A stretch of DNA of 64,000 nt from a virus, in the IMG/VR virus record IMGVR_UViG_3300044713_000119, positions 2,692 through 66,691 of that record. One strand, written 5' to 3'. The position numbers were made by a program, and so were the translations under genes. Shown one piece after another: positions 11,807 through 30,718 of the stretch. Position 1 is the stretch's first letter. Each line of letters opens with the position of its first letter. The notes below the pieces were generated by a model, which saw only the letters and a program-made list of their open reading frames with translations, searched no databases and was not told the origin of the DNA.

Positions 11807-12256
11807 TCAACTGAGTGCCTGCTTGAGTTCTTCTGCGGCCGCATCGCGGGCCTTGAGTTCTTCGTCTGTTGGCTGTGTGCCAGGCCGCGAAGCCACGGGC
11901 TTGGGCATGGCGAGAATCGTGCGATTGAAATTGGTGACGTTCTCGCGCGTGACTTCTGCGGCAATCACACGAGGATTCCGGCTGCCAGTCTTTTTGGCTG
12001 CGCGCTGCCATGGCGTAAGTGAACTATCGTCAATCTCCTCGACCTTGGGAGGTGCCGTGACCTGTGCTGGCGCATTCCTTACCCACTCTGGCCTTACTTC
12101 CATGTCGGGATAAAGTGGTAGACCACTCGAGCGAAACGCAATCTGGTTGTGGAGTTGCTTGATCTCCAGTTCCATCGAAGCCATGCGCATCCTGGCGTCA
12201 GAAAGTGCCTGCTGCGCGTCCAGTAGGCGTGCGCGCGATACCCACGGCCAATTCAT
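11807..12256 (-). CDS. Hypothetical protein (N-terminal coiled coil)
   Basis: 149 aa; start overlaps the upstream stop. Confidence 0.6.
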   Translation of the reverse strand: MNWPWVSRARLLDAQQALSDARMRMASMELEIKQLHNQIAFRSSGLPLYPDMEVRPEWVRNAPAQVTAPPKVEEIDDSSLTPWQRAAKKTGSRNPRVIAAEVTRENVTNFNRTILAMPKPVASRPGTQPTDEELKARDAAAEELKQALS

Positions 12257-13794
12257 TAGTTGACCCCGATCTTTCCACCTGCGCCGAGACCTGGACCCAT
12301 GGTGGGACCTGGCTTTACTGTTACTCCGCCAATCAGCGGATGAGGGTAGGTGTACGGCGTGTAATTATTCGTGTAGATTCCGCAAGTACTCGGCTCCGTC
12401 GCACCTTGACAGTAATCAATCGCCCCATTCAATGCTCCGCTAACCGAGTGCGCCGTGCCCTTGATGTAATTCGCCATTGTTCGTGTAGGCGTACAAGTAT
12501 TCCCGCCTTGCGGCCCGTCCACGTTGACTGTCACCGAGTTGGTGCAACTGCCTCCGGTTGAGCAGCCCGCTTGCGACCCGTTATTCCAGAGCAGTAAGGG
12601 AATGCTGTTTATGGTCGAGCGCGTGCAACTACCTGCCGCGCATCCCGTGCCGATCTGTCCCGCACAGGGCCAGCCGGGGGCACTCGCGTCTCCCGCATTT
12701 CCATCGACGGCCTGACTGCCATCACAGGAAAGCATTGTCTGGTTGTTGCACTCGTATCCATAGCCACGGGTCTCGTCAACGTGGACGGTTTTATCGCCGT
12801 AGCCTTGAATTGTGTTATTGAATATGACACCCGTTCCCGAGCCGAACCGCATCGGGTAATCACCGCCCGGACTCCCATCGGTATCATCGTAAGAGTTGTT
12901 ATAGATTTCGTACTTGTGACCCTCGACTTCGCCGTTGTAGCAGAAACCTCCACCACCTCCACGTGTCCAGTGTCCGTAATGATACGTGGGGCCAGATACT
13001 GTGTTGTAGCGAAACACCATATGCTGACCGCCAGATTCCGCATCAGATACTGCTGCATTCTCAGCGGAGCCGGTATAAGTAAAGGTTGAGGTTTCTACAT
13101 AAAGAGCATTTTCCGTGCCCAAGCCGATAGCAGGCGTGCGCCAAGCATATTCACCTTCGTAGACAGTCGTGTTGCCCGGACTAGTCACGCATTCTGAATT
13201 AAGAAACTCGGCCTGTTCGAGAAAATTTCCGCCTTGCCATGTGACATTCCAGTGATCGAGGACGCCCCAGACTGGGCCATACTGGATCACGATATTCCCG
13301 CTAGAAGTGTAGTTGGCGGTGATGTGATCAACGCGAAAGAATCCCGCAAAGGAAGTCAGGTTGGGATTGCTGTTGTTGATATTGAGCAAGTCTCCGGTCG
13401 TGCTGCCAGTGAAAGTGAAGTTGGAAATTCTCCACGCTGCCGCCGTCGCTCCGGTATTCGACACGTTCACATCAAAAGCGTCGTTGGAAGTGTGAGTGAT
13501 GGTCGTTGTTCCGCCGACCGACCCTAGGACTTCCACATTCTTGTTCGTCCACGACACTGGGCTACTCCATGAGCAGGAGCCGGACGGAACGTAGACCGCA
13601 TCCCCGCCGAAAGCGTTGGGCGTGGTGACGCCGGTAGACCCTGTCCCCGATGCGGTGATGCAGGCTTGAACATCAGTTTGCCCGCAACTCGCAGCTAAGC
13701 GGCACGTCCCTGTCTCGCCATTGGTGCAACTGGTTACAGTACAGGCGGCGTGGGCCGAGACGCACAGTGCGAGTAGGATTAACCAGCGTTTCAT
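12256..13794 (-). CDS. Signal-peptide-bearing beta-helix (pectate-lyase-like) depolymerase / tailspike
   Basis: MKRWLILLALCVSAHA signal peptide; GDAVYVPSG, VFRYNT, YEIYNNS, GTGVIFNNT beta-helix rungs; YTPYTYPHPL C-terminal motif; Cys-rich. Confidence 0.7.
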   Translation of the reverse strand: MKRWLILLALCVSAHAACTVTSCTNGETGTCRLAASCGQTDVQACITASGTGSTGVTTPNAFGGDAVYVPSGSCSWSSPVSWTNKNVEVLGSVGGTTTITHTSNDAFDVNVSNTGATAAAWRISNFTFTGSTTGDLLNINNSNPNLTSFAGFFRVDHITANYTSSGNIVIQYGPVWGVLDHWNVTWQGGNFLEQAEFLNSECVTSPGNTTVYEGEYAWRTPAIGLGTENALYVETSTFTYTGSAENAAVSDAESGGQHMVFRYNTVSGPTYHYGHWTRGGGGGFCYNGEVEGHKYEIYNNSYDDTDGSPGGDYPMRFGSGTGVIFNNTIQGYGDKTVHVDETRGYGYECNNQTMLSCDGSQAVDGNAGDASAPGWPCAGQIGTGCAAGSCTRSTINSIPLLLWNNGSQAGCSTGGSCTNSVTVNVDGPQGGNTCTPTRTMANYIKGTAHSVSGALNGAIDYCQGATEPSTCGIYTNNYTPYTYPHPLIGGVTVKPGPTMGPGLGAGGKIGVN

Positions 13795-14552
13795 TTGAAC
13801 GTCCCGCAAAGAATCGCCGCTGCTGGCGTCGATGAACTGTAGGTAATCGGACAGTTCTGCGAACCGGAGGAAGATAAGACTTGGTACTCAGCCTCACTCT
13901 TGAAACTACTCGACGACCCAACGATACCCCCAATGAGCGTAAAACTACTCCCCGCCGTAAAGGTGAAGTTGCCCGTGATGGAGCCTAACCCAAACGCTAA
14001 ATCCGCTGAGCCCGTAGGATTGATCGTTGCCGTAACCGATGTTGACCCGGAGCCGACGGTCGCGTGCCCCGGTGTTCCGTCCACTGCTCCGGTTCCACCT
14101 GTGTAAGTGATGCAGTCAATAATTGGTTGATTCTGCGTGGCCCCGGTGACGCTGAAGGTCGAGGTTGATGGCGAGTGAGTAATGGAGAACGAAGTAAATA
14201 ACTGATAGTTGCCTGTTGTGTTCGTGTTGTCGAGATAATTGCTGCCGTCTGCGGTATAAGTGTTCGGCGTGCTTGCGTTGTCCGTGACGCTAAACGGTGT
14301 GTCCCCGCCATCATTGAAATTACCTACTGCACACACGATATTTTCGCCCACACTAGGATTTACGCTCCAAGTGCAAGTCGGATTACTGAAGGTGTTTTGA
14401 CCTACGCATGTCTTTCCAGTGACGGTGATTCCTGACGCCGCTGTGCCGGGAAATACCGTGGTTTTAGGCAGGATTGTGGTCTTGGGTAGAACAGTCGCAC
14501 CCTGTCCGAAGGCGAGAGAGCAGAGAAGCGGAATCCAAAGGAGGCGTCTCAT
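13791..14552 (-). CDS. Signal-peptide-bearing Ser/Thr/Gly-rich beta-sandwich virion/adhesin protein
   Basis: MRRLLWIPLLCSLAFG-Q signal peptide; SVTDN..N.Y.. repeats typical of phage tail beta-sandwich domains. Confidence 0.65.
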   Translation of the reverse strand: MRRLLWIPLLCSLAFGQGATVLPKTTILPKTTVFPGTAASGITVTGKTCVGQNTFSNPTCTWSVNPSVGENIVCAVGNFNDGGDTPFSVTDNASTPNTYTADGSNYLDNTNTTGNYQLFTSFSITHSPSTSTFSVTGATQNQPIIDCITYTGGTGAVDGTPGHATVGSGSTSVTATINPTGSADLAFGLGSITGNFTFTAGSSFTLIGGIVGSSSSFKSEAEYQVLSSSGSQNCPITYSSSTPAAAILCGTFK

Positions 14553-17500
14553 TAGAACGGCCCTACTGTGCAATACGCCCCGCGATAAATAGTGAGCAAG
14601 TCGCCGACGGTTGGATCGATTACCTGAAGACTGACGACCGTTCCAGAAGCCGATGCGCCTTCAATCCAGGCGTCAATGTCATATGGCATCTTGGTAGCCG
14701 TAGCGCCCTGTGTCCAGGTTCCGCCGATGGTGATTGAGGAAGTCGTTGAAGCCGTATCCGTGGTTGATCCGCCAGCCGCAACCGCCGCCGCCGTAAAACC
14801 GCTATAAGATGCGGTGACATTGGTCGCGCCGTTGGTCGCCGTGATCATGGCCCAGTTATTCGCTGGCGTGGCTGTGGTATCGGTGACAATAACGTGGCAA
14901 TGGAAATGCCACGACTGTGCGCTCAGAGGCAGAGTAAGAGTAAGCGGCGTTCCGGTTGAGCCAACAATGGTCGCTGAGGTACATGAGGATACCGTGCCGC
15001 CCGTTCCGCAAGTCCAGTCCGCCGTCATAAAGACGCGGTTCGATGCGAAGTTGACAAACTCTGACGAGGTAACAAGTACGTTGTCCGTGATTGAGGACGC
15101 GGCAATCTTAGAGGTCGTGCCGGAAGCCTTTGGGATTACGTTAGCGCCGATGATGGACGCCTCGCCGACCGCGCATCCGAGGTTTACGGTCTGGTCGATG
15201 ATATCTACGCAATGCAGGGTCGAGTCGTTATATTCTCCGTACTGAGTTGAGGTTCCAGTAAACGCCGTGCCCTCCGTGGCTGCCCAACCGCCCGAGCTAC
15301 CGTTAGTAAGAGCCGCCCCGAATGCCCCGAAGTACCCTTCTCCGAGGTAGTCCACGCCGAAGATTTGGCCGCCGCCGTTGATATGCGCATCAATCAGGTT
15401 TCCTGCGAATCCGTTCGGGCTGTTGATTCCAAACTCTGTGCCAGCAGTCGAGAGCGTAGTCGGGCCAGTGCCGTCGTTGATATAAACCAGCGGGAAGTTA
15501 GTGGTTGCCGAGCCAGCTGTGTATGGCGCTCCGGTCGCGTAAAGAGACGCCTGAGACGCTGTGCCCCCGTAGGACGTAAAGAGGGGCTCGGAAGTGGTAA
15601 CAGTCGTTCCGTTGTCAGTGATGGTGCTATTTGCCACCAGCATATTACCGCTTGCGATGACGGCCTTTGGGAGCACGTTGGTCGTCAAGGCAGCCGCACT
15701 GTTTAGGAAAAGCGAATCAGCCCCGTTCACGTAACCGTGGTAGTTATTGTTGGTTGAATCGAAATCAATCGTGCCGGCAGCAGTAGCCGTGTTTCCTGCG
15801 GCCACTGGCACCTTCAGTCCAGCGGTGCTGGTAATCGCAGAGAAATCCACCAGCCCGGAGGCACCGCCGGTCAGTGTGTGGGTAACATAAGTGAAATCGC
15901 CGTTGCCTGTAGCTGGGGCTGTGCCAGCGCCTCCGCCTACAACCAAGGCATGTGCAGCCAACAGAGCCGATGACGACTCCTGTGTTGTTGAACTGAAGTA
16001 TGGAATCCCACCAGAAACCACCGTCCCTGATACCACTAATGGGAACGATCCCCCAGGCGCGGTCCCGAGGACGGCAGTATTCATTTTGATCAGCGGCAAC
16101 GTGGTCGACGCCGTAAAGGTTGTACCATCTGGCAGCGTCCATGCCCCTGCAACTGCGGCTACGACGCCAACCGTTGCACCTTGCGCGCTGGTGCAAGTCG
16201 CTGTTCCAGCGCTATCGGTGATCTGACCGGCCGTACCGCCTGCGCAAACCGTGTGCCCGAGCGTAACCGCCCCCGAGGCATTGATGGGTACGAGACTCGG
16301 AGGGGAAACGACGACGTTGTAGTTTGATCCAACAGTCTCAATGACGCCGACCCATGACGATGGCGACGCGCCACAGTTCTTTGTGGTCATGGCGGCCGAG
16401 AAGCATGCCAGATCCCATTGCGTCGACGTAGAAGCCGTCACATAGACATCGCCCCACAGAACTAGACCCTGAAGCCCTTGGGTTGCCCCGGTGCTGGCAC
16501 CAGCCAACAATTCCACACCGCCACCTTGGCTCGCCGCGTTGGTGGCGGCGTTGGTTCCGCCTTCGACTAATGCGCCGCCGCCTTGAGAACTAGCTCCACC
16601 CGCGCCGGTTTCATTGGCGCCCTGCAAGATAGCGGCTCCAAGCGCAGAGTTGGCACTGGCATTCGCGCCACCGCCGTAGGTAACAGCCTGAGTGCTAGTG
16701 ACGTCGCTGATTGCGCTACTGCTTTCAAGAAGAGCCGAGTTGACGGTGTTGCCGTTCGAATCAAATTTGGTGATGCGGTTGGTGTTGACGGTTCCGGTCG
16801 AGAGTTGCAGATTCGCGCCGTTGCCCTGCTCCCCGCTTACTCCCGAAATAGCAATCAAACCACCAGAGCTGATAGTTACCGGACTAGTCGCGCTCAACGC
16901 TCCGCCGCTCGTCGTCGTCGCACAGGTCGGACACGACAAGGTGTTGGTGCTGACACTCAACGGAGAACTGATCGTCGCCGTGAGATCGCTCAACGCTGGG
17001 CGGGTGGCCGTAAAGACCCCAGATGTTCCGACAGAAGCCAGCCACTCATGAGAACCGCCAGCATTCGCGACAACGGTTGTTCCAACCGTGCCAGCGCTCC
17101 CTTCGTCATGCAGCCGGTTATCGGTCGAATCTACCCAAACGTTCTGTGTTCCTGAGGCCGGCGTGCTCGGCGCTGTAATCGCCGGGAATGTCATCCCGTT
17201 AAAGGCTGGGACGGTAGCAGATCCTGTGGCGAGGCCAGCGGCAATGATTGAGCCGGTAATATCGCCCGCTGTTCCGTTACCGACATCGACTACGCCGGCC
17301 GACCCGCGCGAAAGACCTGTGTCCGCAGTACCAGAACCGTTGGTCCACTGAATCGAGCCGGAGAGAAACTGATTCCGCCAGCGGAGACCAAGGCTGCCAA
17401 GATCGATCGATGCATCAGCACCAGGAGTCAGCGAGGCATTTACGGCGACAGCAGAGAGGTTCGACAGAGCGGTGTTCGCGCCGCCGGCGCCAGAGTTTAA

Positions 17501-18946
17501 CTGCTGAGTCCACGTGTTTGTGGAGGTGCAGTAGTACATGTTCTGTCCCGCGGTAGCATCCGTCGCGAAGTATTCTTCACCTTGAGTACAAGTAGCAGGG
17601 ATGCTGGCCGCCCCGCCCTTTAGGGCCGGTTGCGTGTGGGTTGCACCGCCAAAGTTTACGACGCCCGTTCCAGTGACACCGACAAAGACGCCATTGCCAC
17701 TGCCGTCGACCGTGGAGTTCGTGCTTCCGAGTTCGAGTTTGCCCGTACCCTTAGGCAGCAGTTCAAGGTTGATGTTTGAGTCACTTCCGGTTCCGGCAAT
17801 CTGGACCGTGGCTGGATTCGCGGTGGCGGCGTTTGTCACCGTTACGCTGTCGACCGCCGAAGCGGTTGCGCTCGAGAGTAAGAACGGATTCCCATTGCCA
17901 TCGTTGATGGTAGTGATATTCGGGCTGGTGAGCGTCTTCCCGCTCATCGTCTGCGTGCCCGTAAGGTTTACAAGGGTATCCGAGCCAGTGGGAATCTTTA
18001 CCGTCCCTGAGATCGCTCCGGTGACTGGCTCAAGTGTCAGAGTGCCGCTGGTTGCGTTACCAAAGGTCAGAGAACCAAGAGTGCCGGAAGCGCCAAGGGT
18101 AGGAGTCGCCGTGAAGGCGGGTGTCGCTCCTGCGAGCACCTGGCCCGCTGCGCCGGTGATTGAGATCGTACCTGTGGTGGTAATGGGTCCACCGGCAAGC
18201 GGAGCCGAGACAGCTACGGAGGTTACGGTACCAGACCCACCCCCAGAGGACTGCTGGGTAAACGTATTCGTCGCAGTGCAGTAGTAGAGGTTTTGCCCTG
18301 CTGTGGCGCTTGTCGAGAAGTATAGTTCGCCAACCGCACAGGTAGCAGGGATGCTGCCGATCGCTCCGGTAACTACCGGAAGGCTATGGGTAACCCCGGA
18401 CCAATCTTGTGTTCCGGTGGTCCAGGCATTCGACTGATCTTTGAAGACTGCACTGCTGATAATGCGATTTTTGGCAAGCGTGCCCGTCCAACCAAGTGTC
18501 AAGGCGTTCGAAGAGATGGAACCGGTCACGTTCGTATCGTTGACGACAGATGTGGGCACCGAGGTACCAAGGATGCCGCTGTCGGTTGGCTGGCCAGATC
18601 CATTCCAGCCAGCAAGATCGCCGTTGGTGGTCGGAGAGATCAGTTTTAACGTGGCGCTGTGGAAGTCCCAAGTGTTACCGCTTGCTGTAAACGTCCCAGC
18701 GTTCGAGTTCGTCGCCGCCGTGATACCGCTCCAAGCAGTCGCTCCGGTCGCACTCGCGGTCATGGTTACCACGCCGCCAGAGAACGTGCAGGTCAAGTTC
18801 GTGGAGCAGTTGATGGGCAGCCAGGTATTGAACGTGCCGATGGGCGTGCCAGCGCTTTGAACCTGTACAGTCAGTCCACCATGGCTTTGAGCGAACAATG
18901 GAGCGATTAGGCAGAACAAGACGATGGCAATACGTAAACGTTTCAT
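14552..18946 (-). CDS. Long tail fibre / adhesin with signal peptide
   Basis: 1464 aa, Gly/Thr/Ser/Ala-rich; MKRLRIAIVLFCLIAPLFA-Q; fibre motifs GTVTSV, GTQTMSGKTLTSP, ANTALSNL; duplicated PATC..GE.YF..A.AGQN.YYCT module. Confidence 0.75.
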   Translation of the reverse strand: MKRLRIAIVLFCLIAPLFAQSHGGLTVQVQSAGTPIGTFNTWLPINCSTNLTCTFSGGVVTMTASATGATAWSGITAATNSNAGTFTASGNTWDFHSATLKLISPTTNGDLAGWNGSGQPTDSGILGTSVPTSVVNDTNVTGSISSNALTLGWTGTLAKNRIISSAVFKDQSNAWTTGTQDWSGVTHSLPVVTGAIGSIPATCAVGELYFSTSATAGQNLYYCTATNTFTQQSSGGGSGTVTSVAVSAPLAGGPITTTGTISITGAAGQVLAGATPAFTATPTLGASGTLGSLTFGNATSGTLTLEPVTGAISGTVKIPTGSDTLVNLTGTQTMSGKTLTSPNITTINDGNGNPFLLSSATASAVDSVTVTNAATANPATVQIAGTGSDSNINLELLPKGTGKLELGSTNSTVDGSGNGVFVGVTGTGVVNFGGATHTQPALKGGAASIPATCTQGEEYFATDATAGQNMYYCTSTNTWTQQLNSGAGGANTALSNLSAVAVNASLTPGADASIDLGSLGLRWRNQFLSGSIQWTNGSGTADTGLSRGSAGVVDVGNGTAGDITGSIIAAGLATGSATVPAFNGMTFPAITAPSTPASGTQNVWVDSTDNRLHDEGSAGTVGTTVVANAGGSHEWLASVGTSGVFTATRPALSDLTATISSPLSVSTNTLSCPTCATTTSGGALSATSPVTISSGGLIAISGVSGEQGNGANLQLSTGTVNTNRITKFDSNGNTVNSALLESSSAISDVTSTQAVTYGGGANASANSALGAAILQGANETGAGGASSQGGGALVEGGTNAATNAASQGGGVELLAGASTGATQGLQGLVLWGDVYVTASTSTQWDLACFSAAMTTKNCGASPSSWVGVIETVGSNYNVVVSPPSLVPINASGAVTLGHTVCAGGTAGQITDSAGTATCTSAQGATVGVVAAVAGAWTLPDGTTFTASTTLPLIKMNTAVLGTAPGGSFPLVVSGTVVSGGIPYFSSTTQESSSALLAAHALVVGGGAGTAPATGNGDFTYVTHTLTGGASGLVDFSAITSTAGLKVPVAAGNTATAAGTIDFDSTNNNYHGYVNGADSLFLNSAAALTTNVLPKAVIASGNMLVANSTITDNGTTVTTSEPLFTSYGGTASQASLYATGAPYTAGSATTNFPLVYINDGTGPTTLSTAGTEFGINSPNGFAGNLIDAHINGGGQIFGVDYLGEGYFGAFGAALTNGSSGGWAATEGTAFTGTSTQYGEYNDSTLHCVDIIDQTVNLGCAVGEASIIGANVIPKASGTTSKIAASSITDNVLVTSSEFVNFASNRVFMTADWTCGTGGTVSSCTSATIVGSTGTPLTLTLPLSAQSWHFHCHVIVTDTTATPANNWAMITATNGATNVTASYSGFTAAAVAAGGSTTDTASTTSSITIGGTWTQGATATKMPYDIDAWIEGASASGTVVSLQVIDPTVGDLLTIYRGAYCTVGPF

Positions 18947-19344
18947 TGGGCGGAAACGACCTCCAGCGTCAAGTTGTAAGTAGCTCCGCGGTAGAGCACT
19001 GGAACATAGACCGTTGCGTCCATTTCACCGTCGTTTGGAGCTAGAACCCCAAAGGCTTCGTGGGTAAAGCCGTTCTTGTCCTCAAAGCCATCGTAAAGAT
19101 CGTCAAACTCAACCTCTTGGTCACCAACAAAATAAGAGGCTGCGCCGCCACAGCGCCACGGAAATACTGGTTTACAGGTCAAGTGAATCGTTACCCAGTC
19201 GCCATGGTGGACATCGATGGTCTGCTCGCTGGTGTCGGTTGTGGTCCACTGAATAACGGTGCTGATGTCGGCGCGAGGCACTTCCTGGGCAGCAAGAGAG
19301 AAGGCAAATAAGAGACTCGCAACAAACGTGACTAACTGTGCCAT
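18943..19344 (-). CDS. Small secreted beta protein
   Basis: MAQLVTFVASLLFAFSLAA-Q signal peptide. Confidence 0.6.
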   Translation of the reverse strand: MAQLVTFVASLLFAFSLAAQEVPRADISTVIQWTTTDTSEQTIDVHHGDWVTIHLTCKPVFPWRCGGAASYFVGDQEVEFDDLYDGFEDKNGFTHEAFGVLAPNDGEMDATVYVPVLYRGATYNLTLEVVSAQ

Positions 19345-23054: not shown

Positions 23055-23665
23055 AGTTTGATCTGCTCCGCGGCCGCATCCACAGCCAAGTTGCCGGTTG
23101 GGAATGCCAGCAAGCGACTGAACGCCTTATTGAACTGGCCCTTATTCAGCGGCAACGTGTGTCCAGCAGCGTGAAACGCTTCCATGGTGCTCACACCCTG
23201 CAGCACAGGAATCAGAGCCTGTAAGGATTGCAGTTCCGCTTCGACCGCCCCGACGAGAGCCTCGGCCTTCGCTTGGACCGCAGGATCATCAATGTGCAGA
23301 GCCGGCAGAACCTTCGCCCAGTTCTGAATCACAACTTCGATCGCGTCGTTGATCTGCGTGAGGATAGCGACTTTTCCAGCTGCGCCTAGAGCCGTGTTGT
23401 ACTGATTGATCAGCGGCAGGATGACGTTATTCAGGTCGTTAGTCGCTTCTTGTGAGGCTGACTGAATCGTTGAGAACACATCCGGCGAGATCGCCGCGCC
23501 TGCAGCGGTCAACACCAGAAGAATAGCGTTGATGGCCGGCCCAAGAGCCGCAATGATGCCGGTAGCTTCTGAGACCCACTGAATTGCGCAGCCCGCCAGG
23601 TTGAGCGCGAGCAGGAACAGAAAAGCGATAAAGCAAACTTTCTGACGTCGGGAGATTCTTTGCAT
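23051..23665 (-). CDS. Lipoprotein (possible spanin-like lysis component)
   Basis: MQRISRRQKVCFIAFLFLLALNLAG-C lipobox; helical body. Confidence 0.65.
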   Translation of the reverse strand: MQRISRRQKVCFIAFLFLLALNLAGCAIQWVSEATGIIAALGPAINAILLVLTAAGAAISPDVFSTIQSASQEATNDLNNVILPLINQYNTALGAAGKVAILTQINDAIEVVIQNWAKVLPALHIDDPAVQAKAEALVGAVEAELQSLQALIPVLQGVSTMEAFHAAGHTLPLNKGQFNKAFSRLLAFPTGNLAVDAAAEQIKL

Positions 23666-23720: not shown

Positions 23721-23903
23721 TTACCACAACACAAACTTGAAAGCTTTGAACACTGGGACGACGGTGTACTTGCCCACCGCCTTGATTCCGCGAGCCGAGC
23801 GATGGACGGGATGCTTGACCGCTTTCACTGTCCAATGCGCGAGATCCTGCGCTGGAGCGAGAGTTGCGAAAGCTAAGATGATGCCGAGGCTGAGTTTCTT
23901 CAT
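23721..23903 (-). CDS. Small secreted peptide with amphipathic basic C-terminus
   Basis: MKKLSLGIILAFATLAPA-Q; RBS GGAGG. Confidence 0.5.
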   Translation of the reverse strand: MKKLSLGIILAFATLAPAQDLAHWTVKAVKHPVHRSARGIKAVGKYTVVPVFKAFKFVLW

Positions 23904-23907
23904 GGTT

Positions 23908-24325: not shown

Positions 24326-24347
24326 GGCCAGAGAATAGGTTAGATGC

Positions 24348-24572
24348 CTAGGCTGCGGGTGGCTTTTGCCCGTTGCGGTACCACGCGTACAGAAACCCAG
24401 CCGTGCCGATCAGCACCTTGGCAGTCTCCGGGATCGCTTTGTACCAGCCAAGAACCAAGTCATGAAATGGCGAGTAGCCCATGTAGGCCGCAGCCAGACC
24501 TGTTCCAATCAGGGCCACATAGTGCGTCAACTGCGTTTGGTTGTCCATCAACGCTTTCAGTTTTGCCAGCAT
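24348..24572 (-). CDS. Putative holin (two TM helices)
   Basis: YVALIGTGLAAAYMG and VLIGTAGFLYAWY; RBS AAGGAG; upstream of the endolysin. Confidence 0.5.
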   Translation of the reverse strand: MLAKLKALMDNQTQLTHYVALIGTGLAAAYMGYSPFHDLVLGWYKAIPETAKVLIGTAGFLYAWYRNGQKPPAA

Positions 24573-24687
24573 GATTGGCTCCTTTGAGAAAGTGTAGGTG
24601 CGTCCCGGGATTAAGAACAGCCGCTCTGGCCCTCTACTCCCTGAGTTCAGACGCACCCTTATCCGCGGTCAAGCCGCGAAGTGACTG

Positions 24688-26343
24688 CTAGTTGACCAAC
24701 TCAACGTGCAAGTCCAGCAACTGTGGCCCGGTGGTCTCAGCCGAAGAGGTCTGGAGGAACACAACAAATAGCGTGTCCTGGTCCAGCACGTCTGCAGTGA
24801 TTGCTCCGGTTGCCTGCTCGGGTGCCGAGATGGCCACTGTGGTTCCTGCCTGCAAGCCATCAATCAACCAGCCGCTAGGCATAATGCTGCCCGTTGCGCC
24901 CGTAGCGTTTGTATCCAAGTTGCACTGGAAACTCACACTGTAGGCTGCGGTGGTCGTGGTATGGGTCTCAAGCAACGTGCAAAGCACGATCGGAGTTCCG
25001 GTAGTGAAGTCGGTCAAATCTCCGAGTTCCACCGCAATTTCCGGCGCGGTGCCACCGGTGGTTGGGGTGTACGCTGCCTTGCCTGTAATCCGCAAGGTCT
25101 GACCGATGTAGTTCAGTACGCCCGCAGGCAACTGGATGGTGCCAAGAACGCCCGACTGTCCAGCCGTCAGAGCCACGGTATGGATAAATGGTCCGTAGTT
25201 GGTCTCAAAGCCTGGCAAGCCAAGATGCGAGGTAGGAGTAAAAGCAAACGTGGTGTGGCTGATTGGATTCGGATTGTAGGCCGCTGCCACGCCGCCAGCC
25301 TGCGGAACCAATTGGCTGTGGACGTAAGGTGTTGGGAAGACTCCGTTCGATCCGACTTCACCATACGCGGTGTTGGTGATCGCGCAGGTTGGGTACGGAG
25401 TGAACGGACTCAGCGTACAAGTCGAGGACGTCACTGGTATTCGGTAAGCCGTGGTTAGATAGGCAAGCCCGATGTACGGCAGCCAGCCTACACAGCCAGT
25501 TTCAGCCGCCGGCGCCGTGAAGTTAATCGCGAGCGAGCCTGCTGAGGTGTAGTGCGCGGTAGTCGAGGCTGCACTTTCCCCACCAAGTACATCCACGCAA
25601 GTGACAGCTACGTACTGAGCGGCGTTGGTCCAGGTACCGACCGCCGTGCCATCGCAAACGGTAGTCGTGCCACCGCACGTCGCAGTCGCAACTCGAACCG
25701 CCGGCGTGGTCAGAGCTGTCAGTGTGCTGGGCTGGATGGTGAAATACATCGGCGTGGACGCCTGGCCGCGGAAGTACTCAATGGTCATCCACCCAGGCAA
25801 GCCGTTCGGAGCCTGGCCGGTGATGTTGGCTATGGTCAGACCTGAATCACCACTGGCTGTGACCATGGATTCACCGCGGGCATAAGCATCGTTCAAAGCT
25901 TCCATCAGCCCGTTGTCGCCACTGCCAAGTTGCACATTCGCAGAGTGCGCATTGGCAAACGTTGCGGTAAACCCGCAATTGATAGGGTTGACAGCGCTCG
26001 GACCAGCAGCCGAAGGAGCGGTAATGGCTGTTGGAGTAACTGATTCCGAGTTCGCGCCATCGTAGATTTGGATGGGCACATTGACCGCAAAGATCGAGCC
26101 CCAGGCGATTGCTTTACCATCGCTACCAACTCGCGGATTGCAGTTGTTCAAGGTAACGCTCGTCGAGGTTGCGGTGACGGCATTGAGGGTCTTGTCAGTC
26201 CAATTCGCGTAACTGGACACAAGGATTCTGCCAGCCTGTTGTGTAGGGTAGCCAGGCTGGACGGGAATGGCCTGACCGAACGCGCCTGCCAGTGCACTCA
26301 GGGTGATGGCAAGCAAGGACACTAGCAAACTTGTTCGTTTCAT
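24688..26343 (-). CDS. Signal-peptide-bearing virion structural protein
   Basis: MKRTSLLVSLLAITLSALAGAFG-Q; Thr/Gly/Ala-rich with FN3-like YVAVTCVDVLGGES segment; RBS AAGGAG. Confidence 0.7.
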   Translation of the reverse strand: MKRTSLLVSLLAITLSALAGAFGQAIPVQPGYPTQQAGRILVSSYANWTDKTLNAVTATSTSVTLNNCNPRVGSDGKAIAWGSIFAVNVPIQIYDGANSESVTPTAITAPSAAGPSAVNPINCGFTATFANAHSANVQLGSGDNGLMEALNDAYARGESMVTASGDSGLTIANITGQAPNGLPGWMTIEYFRGQASTPMYFTIQPSTLTALTTPAVRVATATCGGTTTVCDGTAVGTWTNAAQYVAVTCVDVLGGESAASTTAHYTSAGSLAINFTAPAAETGCVGWLPYIGLAYLTTAYRIPVTSSTCTLSPFTPYPTCAITNTAYGEVGSNGVFPTPYVHSQLVPQAGGVAAAYNPNPISHTTFAFTPTSHLGLPGFETNYGPFIHTVALTAGQSGVLGTIQLPAGVLNYIGQTLRITGKAAYTPTTGGTAPEIAVELGDLTDFTTGTPIVLCTLLETHTTTTAAYSVSFQCNLDTNATGATGSIMPSGWLIDGLQAGTTVAISAPEQATGAITADVLDQDTLFVVFLQTSSAETTGPQLLDLHVELVN

Positions 26344-26365
26344 ACTTTGGATTCTCCTTGGAGAG

Positions 26366-29300
26366 TTATTGGGTTTGAACGACTGAAACATGGACGTCGT
26401 AGCTCACTGCTCCACCGCTGCAGGTGCCAGTGGTTAAAGTTGTGGTGTAGGAAATGTTGGTCGAAGAAGTCGCAAACGCCGGCACTGTACCGCCGATATA
26501 CCCCGCAGCTACCGATTGTGTCGTCCCCAGAGTCAACGCTGTCCCAGGGGTAAAAGACCGTGCGTTCGAGCCATCCGTCCAATTCAGTGTGATGTTGACG
26601 GTTCCTGATCCACTTCCGCAGAGCCCACTTTGGTCAAGGTAGTAGGTTGCGAGGAAACTGCCCCCGCTGGACGGCACCGCCAACGTCTGAGTCGAGAGGT
26701 TACCTGTCTGCCCGAGCTTATTCGAGACCGCATACACCGGGGTAAGGCCGACACCCACGGTCGAAGTGCCGTTGTAACTGGTGGCTAATCCTCCTATAGA
26801 AAGCGTTCCGGCTAGCGCCATATTGCCGCTCGAGTTGAGTGTCGAGGTGGCGGAAGGTGTCTGAACGGCTTCTGTGCCGCCACCAGTCACAATAGCCGTG
26901 CTCGTGAGCGTGGCCGCGCCGGTAACCACATTCGCTTTCGCGATGCCGCAGTCTTTTCCGTCAACTCCGACTGCTCCGCTCAGGTTATCGACACAAAGCA
27001 GATGATTGGTGGTCGGCGTGCCAGTCTGATTGAACCCCATCAGCGGCTCGGCGCCGGCGTTGTTTGCGTTGACTGATGGCCAATGGTTCGTAGAATCTCC
27101 GTAGATGAGATCGAAGCCTGCTTCACCGGAGGGAGCAACCATTTCGCCTAGACTCAGGCCGCCTTGAGTCTCAAACGGCAAAGTCGCGAGCACACCATTA
27201 CTGCCTGGACCGGTACCGACATAGCCCTGGGTGCCAAAGATGGCGTTATTGAAGGTCAGTCCAACTGCGTCAAACGATAGCGGCGCGTTGCCGGCACCGT
27301 TGGTAATCCAATAGTTGTTCCCAAAGCTTGAGTTCTGAATCGTCCACTGACACTGGCGGGGGCTACCTCCGCCGCAAGCTGTAGAGCCGGAGGCGTTGAG
27401 GATTCGCAAGCCATCCGTCAGCACGCTTTGGCAGTAGTAGCCTTGATTGTCGTGGAAGTTCAGGCCATCGACAACCAAGGTGTCCACCGCCTGCCCATTT
27501 CCAAGGTTGATACTGATTCCGTAACCAGCATCGCAGATCCGATTATCGTTGATCTCGATCTTACCCAGCAGACTAGGAGTGCCCGCAGGAGCTCCGGTGG
27601 TCTTGAAGAACACCAGAAATCCGCCACTGCCATTATTGATAACCGTACCGCTTGAGTTCACGTTGCAGAGATAGGCTTTGTTGTGGTGAGCGTGTCCACC
27701 CAAGCCGCCGACCGAGTAGCACTCCGAGGCCACGTTTTGAACTGTGTTGTTTGCGATCTCCCAATCGGTCGCGGACGGAGTAATCTGCATGCCATGGCAG
27801 CCTGTTGCGGCCGAGGTATTGTTCCCGGTGCATGCCATGTCAGTACCCAAGTGGTCGCCGCCGACAACATCGTTCTCGAGGATGTTGCCCGAGTACAGAA
27901 TGTTTTGGGTCCAGGCAAAGTGCCCGAAGGAAATCAGATTCACCGCGTACTGCGTGTTCGCGGTATCGTTGTCATAGAACTTGTTGTTGATGATCTGCTT
28001 CAGCCCAGGGTAAGGTCCGTTGGCGTTCGCATTCTGCTGCAGAGCTTGAGCGGAGTTCTGAGTAAACGTGTTGTTTCGAATCGTATAGGTATCTGAGTTC
28101 GTCAGATTCAGCCCAGCGCCGCCGCAATTGTTTACAAAGTTGTCTTCGAAGATAAACCCGCTCGAGACCCCAGCTGTGGTTGTGGCCACACAGATCATGC
28201 CGCTACCTGTATCACCGGACGCCAGTCGGTTGCCGTTGAATGTCATCTTCCGGATGGCCACATTCTGGATCGTTGAAGAACTGGCGCCGACCGTCAGCAA
28301 CGTGCCCGCGCCTGTCGGGGTCGTGGCATTGATAATCGTCTGCCCGTAAACCCCTTCAAACTCAACACCGGAGACGGTAACGCTCATCGTCGTCGAGCCC
28401 AAAGTGAACGCGCCAGCGGGCCAAATATATTTCACGTTCGCCTTGTTTGCCGCGAAGTTCGTCGTTACCGTGTTGGCGGCAGGGAGGTTATGACCATCGC
28501 AAACTCCACCACCAGAAGGAAGAGCTGCGGTGCAGGAGTTGTACTTCGCGAAAGCGTCAGCACCTGAGCAGGTGCTGACATCGAGAACCGCAGTCGTAGC
28601 TGTGACCGTCGACGAGCTCGCAGCGGTGACGAAGCCGCACTGCTGGAACGTCGGGAACGTCGAGTAGTTTTGAGCCTTGACGAAGGCTGTGGTCGCAACT
28701 GTGGTCGAACTGTCGCCTGTGGCCGGAGTTGGCGCGGTCGGTGTACCGGTCAGTGCGGGAGAAGCCAATGGGGCCACATTCGAAGATCCGCCTGCGGCTG
28801 TCCCAATCAAGAAGCCGCCCTGAGAACTAAGCGGTTGGGCTGGACCCGAGGCTGTGCAATTCGTCAGCGGCGAGTTGATCAGTTGATACGTGCCTGAGCC
28901 GCCAATGCACTGGCCACCATTGCCTGTAATAGAGCAGTTTTCAATGATCGTGTTCGAACCAGAAACGTTGATCCATGGGCTCGGAATTACGCTGGCACCG
29001 TTGATGAAGGTTGCCGCAGTACATTTCAGGTGAAAATTGTTGCCTGAGATGAAGATATCCGCGCCAGCAACGAGCGCAAGTTGCACCGAGTCGAGGTTGA
29101 TCTGGATGTCGTTCTGGGTGATCGTCAGAACCGAACTGCCACCCGCGCCGGTAGTCTGAGTTCCCGTCTTCTCTGTTTCGTCGCAAACCCCTCCGGTAGC
29201 TCCGGTAAGCAGCTCGTTCATGCAAGTGCGGAAATCTACGAACGGATCGGAGGTTGTTGGGAGACCAAGCCCGGAGGAATTGATTCGACGCAGGTAAGGC

Positions 29301-30718
29301 GCTAGCTGCGCAATCTGCTGGCTAGCTGACCCTGTGTCGCTACTCACATTCCAATAGAGATTCTGGCCAGCTTGGAAGCGAATGCTGCCACTTGTGGCAT
29401 TCGGCTCCGTACCTGGGGTCGCGCAACTGGTTGTACTCAAACCGCCAACCACCGTGTCGTAACACCACATCCCCTGGGGAAAATTAAGAATGCTTCGTTG
29501 GGTGACGGCCGTACCGTTGTTTTTGATCAGGTTGTACCCACCACCACCACCGCCGCCTGAGGCTGAAATCGAGACTGCGTTCCCCCCGGTCGGTGTCAGT
29601 GTGATGTTCGAACCAGCAATCAGGTTCAACCCGGTCTGGCCAGCATTGTTGATGCTATTCGTCTGAAAGACCAACGGACCATTAAGGTCGCTGTAATTTC
29701 CTGAAAACGCTACGTTCGCCAGCGCGCGCCAACTCTGATTCCCAACCAAAGCCGTCGAGCTCGAGGCAATGCCTGTTCCCAACTGCGCCGTTGGCACCAA
29801 CCCCATCACCAAACTGGCTTTCGCAGCCAGCCCGTTGTCCACATACTGCTTTGTCGCCGCCTGAAGCGCGCTCACCGGATCCGCAGCCAGCGTGATTGCA
29901 CCCGTCATGGTGCCACCGGTTAGCGGCAGGAATCCAGTGACCGTCGTCGGAATGTACTGCGAGCCGTTGTACCCAAGAAACTGACCCGCCATGGGTGCGG
30001 TGCTGTTTACAGCCACTCCCTGAATCGAGGTCGCGTTCCCACTTCCTCCGGCCGCGCCCGGGGTGTAGCAGAGCAGGGGCGTTGACCAGATCAGCGCTTG
30101 CCCGTTCGCCGGCGCCGTGGTACACACTGCAAAGCCTTGAATCTGAGTCGCATTCGCGCCGGTCGCTGTTAGACCTGTGACGGTGATACCGGAGAAATCA
30201 ACTGTGCCGGGACCCTTCCATGAGAACGTTGTGCCAGCCGGTTGCATGATCTTCTGATTCTGGGTGGGATTCGAGAAAATCAGGCCAAAGCCTGGCGGCG
30301 GCGGAGTGCCTGGTCCGAGCGAGAACGGCTGCGCTGTGGCGAGGTTGAAGGTGCTGCCTGCGAGAATCTGGTAGTTTAGGTCCCCAACTAATGGAGTCTG
30401 CTGATCACTCCAAGCTGTTACATGCCAAAGGGTTGAATAGGAGTTCCCGCACGTGATTTCATCATTGCCGTAGATCGTAGCCGGCAAATCGCTTTGGCGC
30501 AGGACGATATGCTTTTGGACGATCGATGCGGGGATGGTCGGAACCGAAGGAACGTTGAATCCACAGTAGTTCAGATCCAACGTGATGTAGGCGAACGGGA
30601 GCGGCTGGGTGTTCGGTCCGACAAACGTTGCTGTGACTGTAGCGGTGGCGAAGGCTGGAATAACTGAGGCAGTGGCAAGCAGAAGTAGAGCGAAGAGACG
30701 AACGAAGAATTTACCCAT
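26366..30718 (-). CDS. Tail fibre/tailspike with signal peptide and beta-helix domains
   Basis: Start MGKFFVRLFALLLLATASVIPAFA; canonical fibre repeats FLPLTGGTMTGAI...AATKQYVD and APLASPALTGTPTAPT...ATTAFV; right-handed beta-helix region. Confidence 0.8.
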   Translation of the reverse strand: MGKFFVRLFALLLLATASVIPAFATATVTATFVGPNTQPLPFAYITLDLNYCGFNVPSVPTIPASIVQKHIVLRQSDLPATIYGNDEITCGNSYSTLWHVTAWSDQQTPLVGDLNYQILAGSTFNLATAQPFSLGPGTPPPPGFGLIFSNPTQNQKIMQPAGTTFSWKGPGTVDFSGITVTGLTATGANATQIQGFAVCTTAPANGQALIWSTPLLCYTPGAAGGSGNATSIQGVAVNSTAPMAGQFLGYNGSQYIPTTVTGFLPLTGGTMTGAITLAADPVSALQAATKQYVDNGLAAKASLVMGLVPTAQLGTGIASSSTALVGNQSWRALANVAFSGNYSDLNGPLVFQTNSINNAGQTGLNLIAGSNITLTPTGGNAVSISASGGGGGGGYNLIKNNGTAVTQRSILNFPQGMWCYDTVVGGLSTTSCATPGTEPNATSGSIRFQAGQNLYWNVSSDTGSASQQIAQLAPYLRRINSSGLGLPTTSDPFVDFRTCMNELLTGATGGVCDETEKTGTQTTGAGGSSVLTITQNDIQINLDSVQLALVAGADIFISGNNFHLKCTAATFINGASVIPSPWINVSGSNTIIENCSITGNGGQCIGGSGTYQLINSPLTNCTASGPAQPLSSQGGFLIGTAAGGSSNVAPLASPALTGTPTAPTPATGDSSTTVATTAFVKAQNYSTFPTFQQCGFVTAASSSTVTATTAVLDVSTCSGADAFAKYNSCTAALPSGGGVCDGHNLPAANTVTTNFAANKANVKYIWPAGAFTLGSTTMSVTVSGVEFEGVYGQTIINATTPTGAGTLLTVGASSSTIQNVAIRKMTFNGNRLASGDTGSGMICVATTTAGVSSGFIFEDNFVNNCGGAGLNLTNSDTYTIRNNTFTQNSAQALQQNANANGPYPGLKQIINNKFYDNDTANTQYAVNLISFGHFAWTQNILYSGNILENDVVGGDHLGTDMACTGNNTSAATGCHGMQITPSATDWEIANNTVQNVASECYSVGGLGGHAHHNKAYLCNVNSSGTVINNGSGGFLVFFKTTGAPAGTPSLLGKIEINDNRICDAGYGISINLGNGQAVDTLVVDGLNFHDNQGYYCQSVLTDGLRILNASGSTACGGGSPRQCQWTIQNSSFGNNYWITNGAGNAPLSFDAVGLTFNNAIFGTQGYVGTGPGSNGVLATLPFETQGGLSLGEMVAPSGEAGFDLIYGDSTNHWPSVNANNAGAEPLMGFNQTGTPTTNHLLCVDNLSGAVGVDGKDCGIAKANVVTGAATLTSTAIVTGGGTEAVQTPSATSTLNSSGNMALAGTLSIGGLATSYNGTSTVGVGLTPVYAVSNKLGQTGNLSTQTLAVPSSGGSFLATYYLDQSGLCGSGSGTVNITLNWTDGSNARSFTPGTALTLGTTQSVAAGYIGGTVPAFATSSTNISYTTTLTTGTCSGGAVSYDVHVSVVQTQ

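Follow-up and report, generated by a model that had tools for sequence, protein, structure and literature searches.

How does a tailed phage come to encode large fibre- and spike-like proteins that begin with export signals? To our knowledge, the tailed-phage fibres described so far are all assembled in the cytoplasm. A Sec leader alone moves a protein away from the cytoplasm, the site of particle building. The window analyzed here is a 64-kb stretch out of the 66.7-kb genome of a podovirus-like soil phage, of capsid-portal-tail type, which encodes a terminase and an endolysin. Between positions 12256 and 30718, eight late genes have a Sec-type leader at their start, which in one case is a lipoprotein leader. 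Their summed length, about 13.9 kb or a fifth of the genome, agrees with the figure of about 14 kb given in a preliminary description of this DNA.

Export leaders in the late gene block

Leaders were called with a custom heuristic, not SignalP, on ORFs defined by the longest-ORF rule, using as criteria a positive n-region, an uncharged 9-residue core averaging 2.0 or more on the Kyte-Doolittle scale, and small residues at -3 and -1. All seven starts named in the preliminary description are present on the minus strand with the leaders quoted there: 13794 (512 aa), 14552 (253 aa), 18946 (1464 aa), 19344 (133 aa), 23903 (60 aa), 26343 (551 aa) and 30718 (1450 aa). Five of the seven scored 5.2-5.6 and 14552 scored 4.1, while the low score of 19344 (3.6; 3.56 unrounded) results from the lack of a basic n-region. 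The heuristic picked up two further leaders, one with a lipobox (LAGC) at 23665 and, outside the 12256-30718 region, one at 48302-48754 on the plus strand. It flagged none of the ten large structural ORFs, a set that starts with 9021-11471 and ends with the 1281-aa and 161-aa ORFs, consistent with the earlier claim that the genes for capsid and portal and those for the adaptor-like and nozzle-like proteins lack leaders. As judged by the heuristic in place of SignalP, positives were restricted to fibre-/spike-like and lysis-associated genes, much as had been anticipated. The leaders are complete, with n-, h- and c-regions and small residues at -3 and -1.

Leaders recur across the clade

With the portal-like gene (9021..11471, minus strand, without a leader) as anchor, we collected 84 loci of the clade; the portal-like protein has 45 homologues, the most distant with PF16510. 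Across 79 related loci, the heuristic found leaders in 60 of 86 ORFs of at least 400 aa upstream of the portal gene, compared with 3 of 140 downstream, an enrichment far above chance. The pattern that the preliminary description had proposed to look for in related phages thus recurs, and it is wider than reported there. In every relative examined, the leader-bearing genes lie within the late structural operon.

When 33 homologues of the 551-aa protein are aligned (alignment A2), all rows open with M-K/R/T/N, followed by a hydrophobic run, a small residue and Q, and this Gln at +1 is almost invariant. At predicted cleavage sites, Gln occupies +1 in 5 of the 7 SPase-I-type leaders of the region and in 38 of 77 leaders of the clade, which bears out the suggestion that several sites expose Gln. 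Relatives of the phage are located in Acidobacteriaceae MAG contigs, and the clade probably infects Acidobacteriaceae. Among leader-positive ORFs sampled from one such MAG, which carries a related prophage piece, 17 of 56 have Gln at +1. These computed sites support the view that cleavage of the phage leaders would often expose Gln, as in the sampled MAG. The word 'Acidobacteria' is absent from the main text of the paper on the Q-rule (PMC5837995).

Cysteine parity and pairing

The seven predicted mature proteins of the window contain 30, 10, 0, 2, 18, 6 and 18 Cys, all even numbers; three of the seven counts turn odd if the leader is included. Among 71 non-redundant leader-positive proteins of the clade, mature Cys counts are even in 62, odd in 7 and zero in 2, such that parity is even in 62 of the 69 that have Cys. 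The same 71 proteins counted as precursors give 39 even, 31 odd and 1 without Cys, and leader-negative clade proteins (n = 275) give 128 even, 107 odd and 40 without. At the level of full-length families, even counts prevail in 45 of 52 families and odd counts in 6, and one family has no Cys (binomial p = 1.8e-8). Parity is weaker in the leader-positive ORFs of the host MAG (21 even, 15 odd, 20 without Cys). Variable Cys columns are also gained and lost in pairs: tallied as both, only a, only b and neither, they give 8/0/0/25 and 14/0/0/19 in the A2 alignment and 16/1/0/30 in the A3 alignment. Cys parity and paired gain and loss are what the export and disulfide reading of the preliminary description would lead one to expect. 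Taken together with the leaders, they provide good support for export, cleavage and disulfide bonding, which we consider highly probable for the leader-bearing proteins on this sequence evidence.

Fibre- and spike-like proteins and their neighbors

All features described in this section are on the minus strand. The 1450-aa precursor (26366..30718) has a Sec-type leader at residues 1-24/26 (30641-30718, score 5.24) and 30 Cys in its mature part. Its sequence matches identify it as fibre- or spike-like. The tail-fibre motifs quoted earlier are present, and the stretch LPLTGGTMTG...AATKQYVD (residues 224-305; 29804..30049) aligns to HylP; in a phmmer search of PDB chains it matched the prophage hyaluronidase/hyaluronan lyase entries 6wv2 (E = 4.5e-4) and 2wb3 (E = 2.8e-3). 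The protein also matches the hyaluronidase family phrog_2332 (E = 1.7e-4) and, weakly, Pfam Beta_helix at residues 781-900 (E = 9.8e-4).

The 551-aa precursor (24688..26343; leader residues 1-23, Gln24 at +1, 10 mature Cys) has 71 homologues and is kept across much of the clade. Directly behind its leader lies N-module A (residues 25-215; 25699..26271). An HMM of this module matched 44 ORFs from 35 of the 85 sources, with a leader preceding the module every time, and its BLAST cluster comprises 45 proteins of 251-1587 aa with eight C-part clusters. A search of 10 near-complete relatives did not find the module in 6 of them, and it is therefore not a clade-wide core part. In the AF2 model of the protein (pLDDT 84.5, pTM 0.82), residues 46-141 resemble a small beta domain found in phage tail proteins and tailspikes (Z 7-8.3), and the C-terminal residues 376-551 (24691..25218) form a predicted TNF/C1q-like jelly-roll domain. 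VIA-align paired this domain with the PGP3 C-domain (Z 8.8), the cyanophage A4 tail (Z 7.8), Kp32gp38 (Z 7.6), the A-1(L) short fibre CBD (Z 7.4) and PRD1 P5 (Z 7.0), the fold matches having middling Z scores of 7-9. BFVD matches are to the C-termini of the phi15 tail spike and KP34 depolymerase (E = 5e-6 to 9e-5).

By sequence comparison, the product of the 1464-aa precursor gene (14552..18946; leader residues 1-19, Gln at +1, score 5.6; 18 Cys mature, 19 with leader) is a mosaic, fibre-like protein with its own N-module B. Portions of it match leader-bearing proteins of the related loci L002, L004, L060 and L063, N-module B is found again in L002 (819 aa) and L006 (546 aa), and leads in the ESM Atlas point to clusters of viral tail fibres (score 0.88-0.91). 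The adjacent 253-aa precursor (13791..14552; leader residues 1-16, Gln at +1; 6 Cys mature, 7 with leader) has zero relatives among the related loci.

Structural modeling makes the 512-aa precursor (12256..13794; leader residues 1-16; 18 Cys mature, 19 with leader) a right-handed beta-helix enzyme of polysaccharide lyase- or hydrolase-like type (AF2 pLDDT 87.2). Foldseek matches to GH87, PL6 lyases, RbmB and the Sf6 and K2-2 tailspikes are weak (E = 1e-3 to 9e-2), the best being to monomeric bacterial lyases as well as tailspikes, and a profile search matched the phage E2 ORF18 pectin lyase (E = 1.2e-5). The family has 711 representatives; among the best 150, 135 are M-started and 80 of these 135 have leaders by the heuristic. 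The representatives come without names or context, making free exported enzymes a natural reading, and the 512-aa protein could simply be one.

Smaller genes complete the block. The 60-aa protein (23721..23903) begins with MKKLSLGIILAFATLAPA/QD, cleavage being predicted before QD (score 5.18), and the 133-aa protein (18943..19344; 2 mature Cys), whose hydrophobic leader ends in AA followed by QE, has a homologue with a typical leader in L001. A conserved leader-less 129-aa protein (19332..19721; BLAST matches in 11 loci) is encoded in relatives directly upstream of large leader-bearing genes. The 204-aa predicted lipoprotein (23051..23665; lipobox LAGC), with relatives in L003 and L004, belongs to a lysis-like gene block. 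A small holin candidate with hydrophobic segments (24348..24656), located between two fibre-gene blocks, had no match in family searches. The endolysin is a GH24 phage lysozyme (21009..21440; Pfam Phage_lysozyme E = 3.2e-14, phrog_7 E = 1.2e-22) that has no leader or SAR segment and was unflagged by the heuristic.

Probable periplasmic maturation and possible virion attachment

Overall, sequences and models make the leader-bearing proteins look like receptor-binding proteins. Protein pairs that are alike only N-terminally number 688, against 42 alike only C-terminally. In all five relatives searched, the nozzle-like protein of 1281 aa is matched at several places between its N- and its C-terminal region; since it is conserved, no other variable receptor-binding candidate was seen. 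Attachment of at least some of the leader-bearing proteins to the virion seems about evenly balanced.

The export signals and fully paired Cys suggest that the large fibre-/spike-like proteins mature in the periplasm, a route not known for tailed phages; in the literature we found no report of signal-peptide fibres in this group. The best explanation overall, to which we assign a probability of roughly 0.5, is that these are exported, periplasm-matured fibres and spikes, some of which join particles. Large, variable proteins that bind or degrade glycans would be made as Sec/signal-peptidase-I precursors. Computation supports that the leader brings the unfolded chain into the periplasm and is then cleaved off, and that the mature protein folds there with every Cys paired. 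As the endolysin lacks a leader, lysis should need a hole-forming holin. Upon breach of the inner membrane, cytoplasmic particles consisting of capsid, portal, adaptor and nozzle may meet the pre-folded periplasmic proteins. The 551-aa and 1464-aa proteins, with their conserved N-terminal modules, could then attach to the tail and serve as receptor-binding fibres or spikes, and enzyme-only members such as the 512-aa protein may remain free and clear exopolysaccharide.

A serious alternative, to which we give a somewhat smaller but substantial weight, is that the proteins are exported and disulfide-bonded yet never part of the virion, being free or envelope-anchored. They might be depolymerases or lectins that remodel or clear host exopolysaccharide and surface glycans before and at lysis, destroy or mask receptors against superinfection, or be displayed on the infected cell like the MAT fibres of Bdellovibrio, with the conserved N-modules as envelope rather than tail anchors. 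The leader and Cys evidence fits this equally well, and the largely leader-bearing family of the 512-aa enzyme is in its favor. Precedents include WceF of Pantoea, a cellular exported tailspike-like glycanase (PMC7949094), the MAT fibres, 21 of 21 of which have a conserved beta-rich domain right behind the signal peptide (PMC10769870), and the unknown genes with Q-rule leaders in P. gingivalis prophages, which their authors interpret as modifiers of the host surface (PMC10367356). However, a fifth of the genome would then be spent on accessory proteins encoded inside the late structural operon, and the phage would be left without a variable receptor-binding candidate. Such fibre motifs and a TNF-like domain at the C-terminus are also typical of virion fibres.

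It is improbable that the hydrophobic N-termini are not functional export signals but uncleaved cytoplasmic-side tethers, or are bypassed, with folding and assembly in the cytoplasm as is general for known tailed-phage fibres. Against this stand the complete leaders with their host-like Gln at +1, a Cys parity that becomes even only after leader removal, paired Cys columns indicating disulfides that require an oxidizing compartment, and a 33-row alignment without a conserved internal start behind the leader. Although no clear Shine-Dalgarno-like motif precedes 3 of the 8 starts within 18 bases, a gene-calling artefact with true starts downstream of the hydrophobic stretches is very unlikely, as 33 of 33 homologue rows align from residue 1 through the leader, database gene calls share the starts (551 aa for the 551-aa protein; a letter-identical 1464-aa protein in ESM Atlas), the next in-frame ATG is far within conserved sequence, and leaders recur in most large ORFs upstream of the portal gene.

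Comparison with known systems

We know of no podovirus tailspike or fibre with a signal peptide, and those known to us fold in the cytoplasm. Examples such as the KP34 depolymerase, phi15 tail spike, K1 capsule lyase and the tailspikes of Sf6 and K2-2 pair a conserved anchor at the N-terminus with a depolymerase or lectin part that varies. The soil-phage proteins are similarly modular, with conserved N-terminal modules, shuffled C-terminal parts and several genes per genome, and their models suggest the same beta-helix enzyme fold and C-terminal lectin/TNF-like domain. They differ in that a Sec leader and an even number of Cys are found in nearly all of them, and they are putative rather than established virion parts.

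In the filamentous phage Ff, the receptor-binding protein g3p is synthesized with a Sec leader, and its disulfide bonds form in the periplasm before it is built into the particle; Ff particles are assembled at the envelope and extruded through it. In contrast, the soil phage is of capsid-portal-tail type, and its proteins have no sequence or fold relation to g3p. The Tat route carries proteins that are already folded, whereas those sent through Sec fold once exported. Pantoea stewartii WceF, a trimeric glycanase that is exported, is a beta-helix protein whose fold resembles a tailspike, but it has a Tat rather than a Sec leader and is encoded in a chromosomal EPS cluster (PMC7949094).

The MAT chimeric fibre proteins of Bdellovibrio bacteriovorus, displayed on the cell's own surface, are a close cellular counterpart of host-surface display (PMC10769870). 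Like the soil-phage proteins, they have a leader, then a conserved N-domain rich in beta structure, then a variable fibre, but they are cellular proteins of a predator bacterium, not products of phage late-operon genes. A family search of the window detected no S74 chaperone domain. In the Porphyromonas gingivalis prophages, whose signal-peptide genes follow the Bacteroidetes Q-rule, predicted cleavage similarly exposes Gln, mirroring the host's own leaders (PMC10367356; PMC5837995). The genes described there are five, of unknown function and in a Bacteroidota host (PMC10367356), whereas the leader genes of the soil phage are its large fibre-/spike-like ones and its hosts are probably Acidobacteriaceae.

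Organization of the late operon and its relatives

An ORF map of the virus record (66,691 bp in total, with the window covering bases 2692-66691) shows a single long late operon on the minus strand, and Pfam and PHROGs family names are almost absent from the record except for a lysozyme and the large terminase, which matches phrog_979 (E = 1.3e-27). First in operon order is a split C5-methylase (31463-32844), followed by the genes for a 1450-aa protein (26366-30718) and a 551-aa protein (24688-26343). A lysis-like block then encodes a small membrane protein, a 60-aa leader protein (23721-23903), a 204-aa lipoprotein (23051-23665), a 249-aa phrog_19005 protein, a GH24 lysozyme and a 54-aa membrane protein. 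After it come, in order, genes for proteins of 129, 133 (18943-19344), 1464 (14552-18946), 253 (13791-14552), 512 (12256-13794) and 149 aa and a portal-like gene (9021-11471), every coordinate so far being on the minus strand. Scaffold- and capsid-sized genes, an SU10-adaptor-like gene (2382-3122; weak, E = 1.5e-3), a 130-aa gene and a 1281-aa nozzle-sized gene that runs past the window's left edge complete this side, and across the record ends lie genes for 266-aa, 454-aa and 3181-aa proteins, a LAGLIDADG endonuclease and the large terminase.

Several of these genes have features of their own. Two overlapping frames share the C5 cytosine methylase: its N-terminal Pfam match falls in a 429-aa ORF and its ENVPGL-type part in one of 363 aa, a split that may represent a sequencing error, a frameshift or an insertion. 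A papain-like Cys...His pattern (GDCTCAA ... GRHSVPHFGYG) can be seen by eye in the 249-aa protein of the lysis-like block (22305-23054, minus; phrog_19005, E = 4.6e-27). The 149-aa coiled-coil protein encoded before the portal (11807-12256, minus) gave no match in family searches and has a conserved start, W/F-P-[WF]-[VT]-S-R; its gene also precedes the portal in the related loci L002, L003, L004, L006 and L084. Between the giant 3181-aa ORF (51982-61527, minus) and the terminase genes is the LAGLIDADG-type homing endonuclease (51129-51977, minus; PF14528, E = 1.6e-6; phrog_4645, E = 5e-22). The giant ORF contains a 2H phosphoesterase domain (PF13563, E = 3.9e-11) at residues 849-970 (~58618-58983) and weakly matches Acb1 anti-CBASS (E = 2.5e-3). 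There is no Cys in any of its 3181 residues, nor in the 454-aa ORF before it, and such Cys-free proteins, in contrast to the Cys-rich exported ones described below, would suit ejection through the tail.

Single-sequence searches for relatives, whether by tblastn with the portal in the phage collection or by a one-protein scan of IMG/VR, were empty, so that an alignment of portal homologues was needed; built from 22 sequences, it recovered 80 IMG/VR loci and four loci in Acidobacteriaceae MAG contigs. Several relatives are 60-73 kb long, with direct terminal repeats and a CheckV completeness of ~100%. The portal-like protein itself has 45 metagenome homologues, one of them named for a Candidatus Sulfotelmatobacter MAG. 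In locus L084 a distance of ~1.8 kb separates a tRNA-Arg from the start of the phage genes, with sucCD-like and ndk genes alongside (6858-6934; 8722-12000). The phage genes comprise a 157-aa leader protein, a coiled-coil protein and a portal of ~50% identity. This locus looks like a prophage or prophage remnant in an Acidobacteriaceae contig, suggesting that part of the clade, at least, is or was temperate. MAG binning and this one prophage-like junction make Acidobacteriaceae the probable host. The 551-aa protein was not found in the two MAGs searched (G001 and G002).

Sec-type leaders in the window

Leaders were called on every ORF of the record by a home-made n/h/c heuristic, not by SignalP, on the basis of a short basic n-region, an uncharged hydrophobic h-region of ~7-15 residues and small residues at -3/-1. 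The preliminary description had quoted leaders at seven starts, and all seven are present as quoted. The 512-, 1464-, 551-, 1450- and 60-aa proteins score 5.2-5.6, with lower values for the 253-aa protein (4.1) and the 133-aa protein (3.6, no basic residue). The companion claim that the structural genes are leader-less also held, with 0 large structural ORFs below 11471 flagged by the heuristic. A lipobox ends the h-region of the 204-aa protein (...LNLAGC), giving it an SPase II-type leader. The Tat motif S/T-R-R-x-F-L-K was not seen in the window leaders when read by eye; RR occurs only in the leader of the 253-aa protein (MRRLLW), where the n-region has 3 residues and the core is strongly hydrophobic. 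Outside the late operon, a 150-aa protein (48302-48754, plus) that returned no match in family searches has a typical leader ending A|QSS.

The positions of the starts were upheld in two ways. Databases give identical starts for the 551-aa and 1464-aa proteins, and the 551-aa family was aligned in 33 rows, every one of which opens with a basic or polar residue followed by a run of hydrophobic residues, one small residue and a near-invariant Gln, the leader being kept in kind and not in sequence. As judged from such comparisons, the window leaders do not stem from wrong gene calls. A leader-less cytoplasmic isoform made from an internal start was considered and rejected, as the same alignment has no conserved Met behind the leader (non-ATG starts aside).

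Leaders are a trait of the clade

We surveyed 79 portal-bearing loci, each spanning 10 kb either side of the portal on one strand, taking plus-strand ORFs by a longest-ORF rule and a heuristic threshold of 4.5. The pattern recurs in these related phages, where a survey had been proposed: among ORFs of at least 400 aa, 60/86 upstream of the portal are leader-positive vs 3/140 downstream. For ORFs of 200-400 aa the counts are 22/66 upstream and 5/174 downstream, and for those of 100-200 aa they are 33/316 and 4/96. Many of the 26 large upstream negatives are locus-edge cuts, leaders missed by the heuristic or over-long ORF starts (L001_699, L023_1600, L040_3734, L045_853 and L082_9 are of these kinds). 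Sec-type leaders on these genes are a clade trait. In a few relatives, genes with leaders also occur after the head genes and before the adaptor-like gene (L001, 19228-19656, 142 aa; L002, 18650-20116, 507 aa), indicating that exported genes are not confined to the region upstream of the portal.

Cys occurs without a lipobox in 53/95 predicted leaders of the clade, which is above a rough expectation from overall Cys frequency. Lipoprotein sorting was rejected as an explanation for these many Cys-containing leaders, with the lipobox found only in the 204-aa protein.

Exposed Gln had been described at several sites, and we find it in 5/7 SPase-I-type leaders of the region and at +1 in 38/77 non-redundant clade proteins. 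In 20 stretches (~380 kb) of G001, the MAG that holds L084, 17/56 leader-positive ORFs have Gln at +1 and several others have AQ a few residues beyond the cleavage site. On this evidence the phage leaders look like the host's own. The term 'Acidobacteria' is absent from the main text of the paper in which the Bacteroidetes Q-rule was defined (PMC5837995), and the counts from the MAG hint at a Q-rule-like habit outside Bacteroidota, in Acidobacteriaceae.

Cysteines become even in number upon predicted leader removal

The large leader proteins had been described as rich in closely spaced Cys. Mature Cys counts for the seven proteins with quoted leaders, large and small, are 30, 10, 0, 2, 18, 6 and 18, all even. 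One additional Cys lies in each of the leaders of the 1464-, 253- and 512-aa proteins, making them odd as precursors; leader-less proteins of the same genome have mixed parity. To extend the count to the clade, 562 ORFs of at least 200 aa were thinned by shared 8-mers to 346. As mature proteins, the 71 leader-positive members comprise 62 even, 7 odd and 2 without Cys, and as precursors 39, 31 and 1, respectively; the 275 leader-negative proteins divide into 128 even, 107 odd and 40 without Cys. Because related proteins are not independent, we also counted by full-length family, where 45/52 are majority even, 6 odd and 1 without Cys (binomial p = 1.8e-8). Leader-positive ORFs sampled from the host MAG show weaker parity (21 even, 15 odd, 20 without Cys).

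Cysteines are also gained and lost in pairs. Expressed as rows with Cys in both columns, only the first, only the second or neither, columns 144/172 (8/0/0/25) and 246/259 (14/0/0/19) of the 551-aa family and columns 462/471 of the 512-aa family (16/1/0/30) co-vary. Invariant or nearly invariant Cys columns lie close together in both alignments (309 and 320 in the former; 357 and 377, and 411 and 417, in the latter). An even Cys number with paired gain and loss is the signature that would be expected of cleaved, disulfide-bonded proteins in an oxidising compartment, and the turn to even parity on leader removal suggests that leaders of the clade proteins are likely cleaved. Pfam searches found no Dsb, cyclase or chaperone of the phage among ten early or other proteins.

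Folds of the leader-bearing proteins

Pfam and PHROGs are nearly blank for the leader-bearing proteins, and no Peptidase_S74 match was found in Pfam at E <= 0.01. Tail-fibre repeats had been described for the two largest proteins; in the 1450-aa protein, the stretch at residues 224-305 could be aligned with HylP, a prophage hyaluronidase and tail-fibre protein (E = 4.5e-4), and the protein has weak Beta_helix (Pfam) and hyaluronidase (PHROGs) matches. Comparison of the 33-row alignment profile of the 551-aa family to the PDB returned a single chance-level row (E = 0.86). The structural model of the 551-aa protein is good (pLDDT 84.5), and its residues 376-551 form a TNF/C1q-like jelly roll, with fold-match Z values that the tool's own note calls middling: 8.8 for the best match, the PGP3 C-domain, and 7-7.8 for cyanophage A4 tail protein, Kp32gp38, the A-1(L) short-fibre binding domain and PRD1 P5. 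In BFVD the jelly roll matches two C-terminal regions, those of phi15 tail spike and KP34 depolymerase. A second stretch, residues 46-141, is similar to a small beta domain that, among the matches listed, is confined to virion proteins of phages (K1 lyase, Chi tail tip, Phi92 gp150, JBD30 baseplate and GP4 tail), at Z values of 6.5-8.3 that are again middling.

The 512-aa protein is modelled as a right-handed beta-helix (AF2 pLDDT 87.2), with weak Foldseek similarity to GH87 and PL6 (E = 1.4e-3 to 7e-3) and, also weakly, to RbmB and the Sf6 and K2-2 tailspikes. Its family profile matches the phage E2 ORF18 pectin lyase (7chu, E = 1.2e-5), ESM Atlas places it with Beta_helix clusters (0.92-0.93), and the family alignment has invariant D, E, R, N and H columns. 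There are 711 representative homologues; among the best 150 of these, 135 are M-started, of which 80 have a leader by the heuristic and more have one visible by eye. The domain is also found within proteins of 1000-1500 aa. For the 1464-aa protein, the first 400 mature residues lead in ESM Atlas to viral tail-fibre clusters (0.88-0.91), and the protein is mosaic with leader-bearing proteins from other loci. Neither it nor the 1281-aa protein matched any PDB chain by phmmer.

Modular anatomy and candidate receptor-binding proteins

Comparison of the first 150 mature residues with the remainder in 89 leader proteins of at least 250 aa identified 688 pairs similar N-terminally only, 213 similar in both parts and 42 similar distally only. 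The module at residues 25-215 of the 551-aa protein (N-module A) defines a cluster of 45 proteins of 251-1587 aa from 35 loci, whose distal parts fall into 8 kinds. Searching with an HMM of the module gave 44 ORFs, as many as three in one genome, and in each the module is directly behind the leader. The N-terminal module of the 1464-aa protein (N-module B) is common to an 819-aa and a 546-aa protein (3 proteins, 2 C-part clusters). Other sub-clades have different N-terminal modules; N-module A was found in 4/10 near-complete relatives searched and was not found in the 6 most distant.

Tail fibres and spikes are classically built in this way, from a conserved proximal module and shuffled distal parts. 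The same anatomy is described (PMC10769870) for the Bdellovibrio MAT fibres, which the cell displays on itself. The 1281-aa nozzle-sized protein has matches from its N- to its C-terminal region in 5/5 relatives searched (30-47% identity), a pattern that fits a core component of the tail and not a protein that varies with host range. No further large variable leader-less gene was seen in the late operon, suggesting that the variable receptor-binding proteins, if the clade has any, are the exported ones. A single complex prediction, run without controls and with N-module A as partner to the adaptor-like and 130-aa proteins (score 0.01, mark 0.32), speaks neither for nor against binding.

Discussion

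Our computations show leader-bearing proteins that combine predicted glycan-binding or glycan-cleaving folds with fibre-like modularity and have Sec-type leaders matched to those of the host. Taken with the cysteine patterns, the leaders make it very probable that the proteins are exported and disulfide-bonded. Whether they reach the particle is a more balanced question, and we consider the odds that at least some members are attached to virions to be about even. A whole clade of soil phages is predicted to send large, variable fibre- or spike-like proteins via the export pathway of the host.

The main competing explanation is that the proteins are exported and never join a virion, acting as free depolymerases or lectins or as envelope-anchored proteins. 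This we regard as a serious but somewhat less probable account. The fibre-like anatomy is shared with the self-displayed MAT fibres, and analogues for a non-virion role are available in WceF (PMC7949094), in the MAT fibres (PMC10769870) and in the Q-rule genes of P. gingivalis prophages (PMC10367356). If the proteins are free, one fifth of the phage genome would be given to exported, disulfide-bonded proteins that bind or cleave glycans. Acidobacteria are an abundant soil group with thick exopolysaccharide, against which such proteins would be likely tools.

A more far-reaching reading, to which we give a probability of roughly 0.45, is a two-compartment assembly in which heads and tails would be built in the cytoplasm and all receptor-binding fibres or spikes would pass through Sec, fold oxidatively in the periplasm, perhaps acquire a pyroglutamate cap, and join the particles only as holin action unites the compartments or after release. 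The endolysin has no leader or SAR segment, from which we infer that it would need holin lesions. After a breach of the inner membrane, particles and periplasmic proteins would occupy one space bounded by the outer membrane, and the module-bearing proteins could dock to the tail in this merged space or after release. If the proteins are on virions, the final step of assembly would take place outside the cytoplasm, and the host Sec, signal peptidase and Dsb systems would be host factors for phage infectivity. Two-compartment assembly would also provide adsorption machinery hardened by disulfides, which would suit soil that is acidic and rich in enzymes.

Searches of main texts in the open-access literature found no report of signal peptides on tailed-phage fibres or spikes, nor any paper that describes a cultured phage of Acidobacteria or of this clade. 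Within that literature, the combination of receptor-binding-protein-like proteins with Sec export looks new for tailed phages. One practical consequence is that signal-peptide filters in searches for receptor-binding proteins or depolymerases would overlook such phage proteins. Assembly of tailed phages is, in the textbook account, wholly in the reducing cytoplasm, and a two-compartment assembly, if shown, would be new in kind. Elements of it are familiar from other systems: tailspikes and fibres of P22 and T4 can join particles in vitro, the tails of the archaeal virus ATV grow extracellularly, and g3p of the Ff phages is a receptor-binding protein that is Sec-exported and disulfide-bonded.
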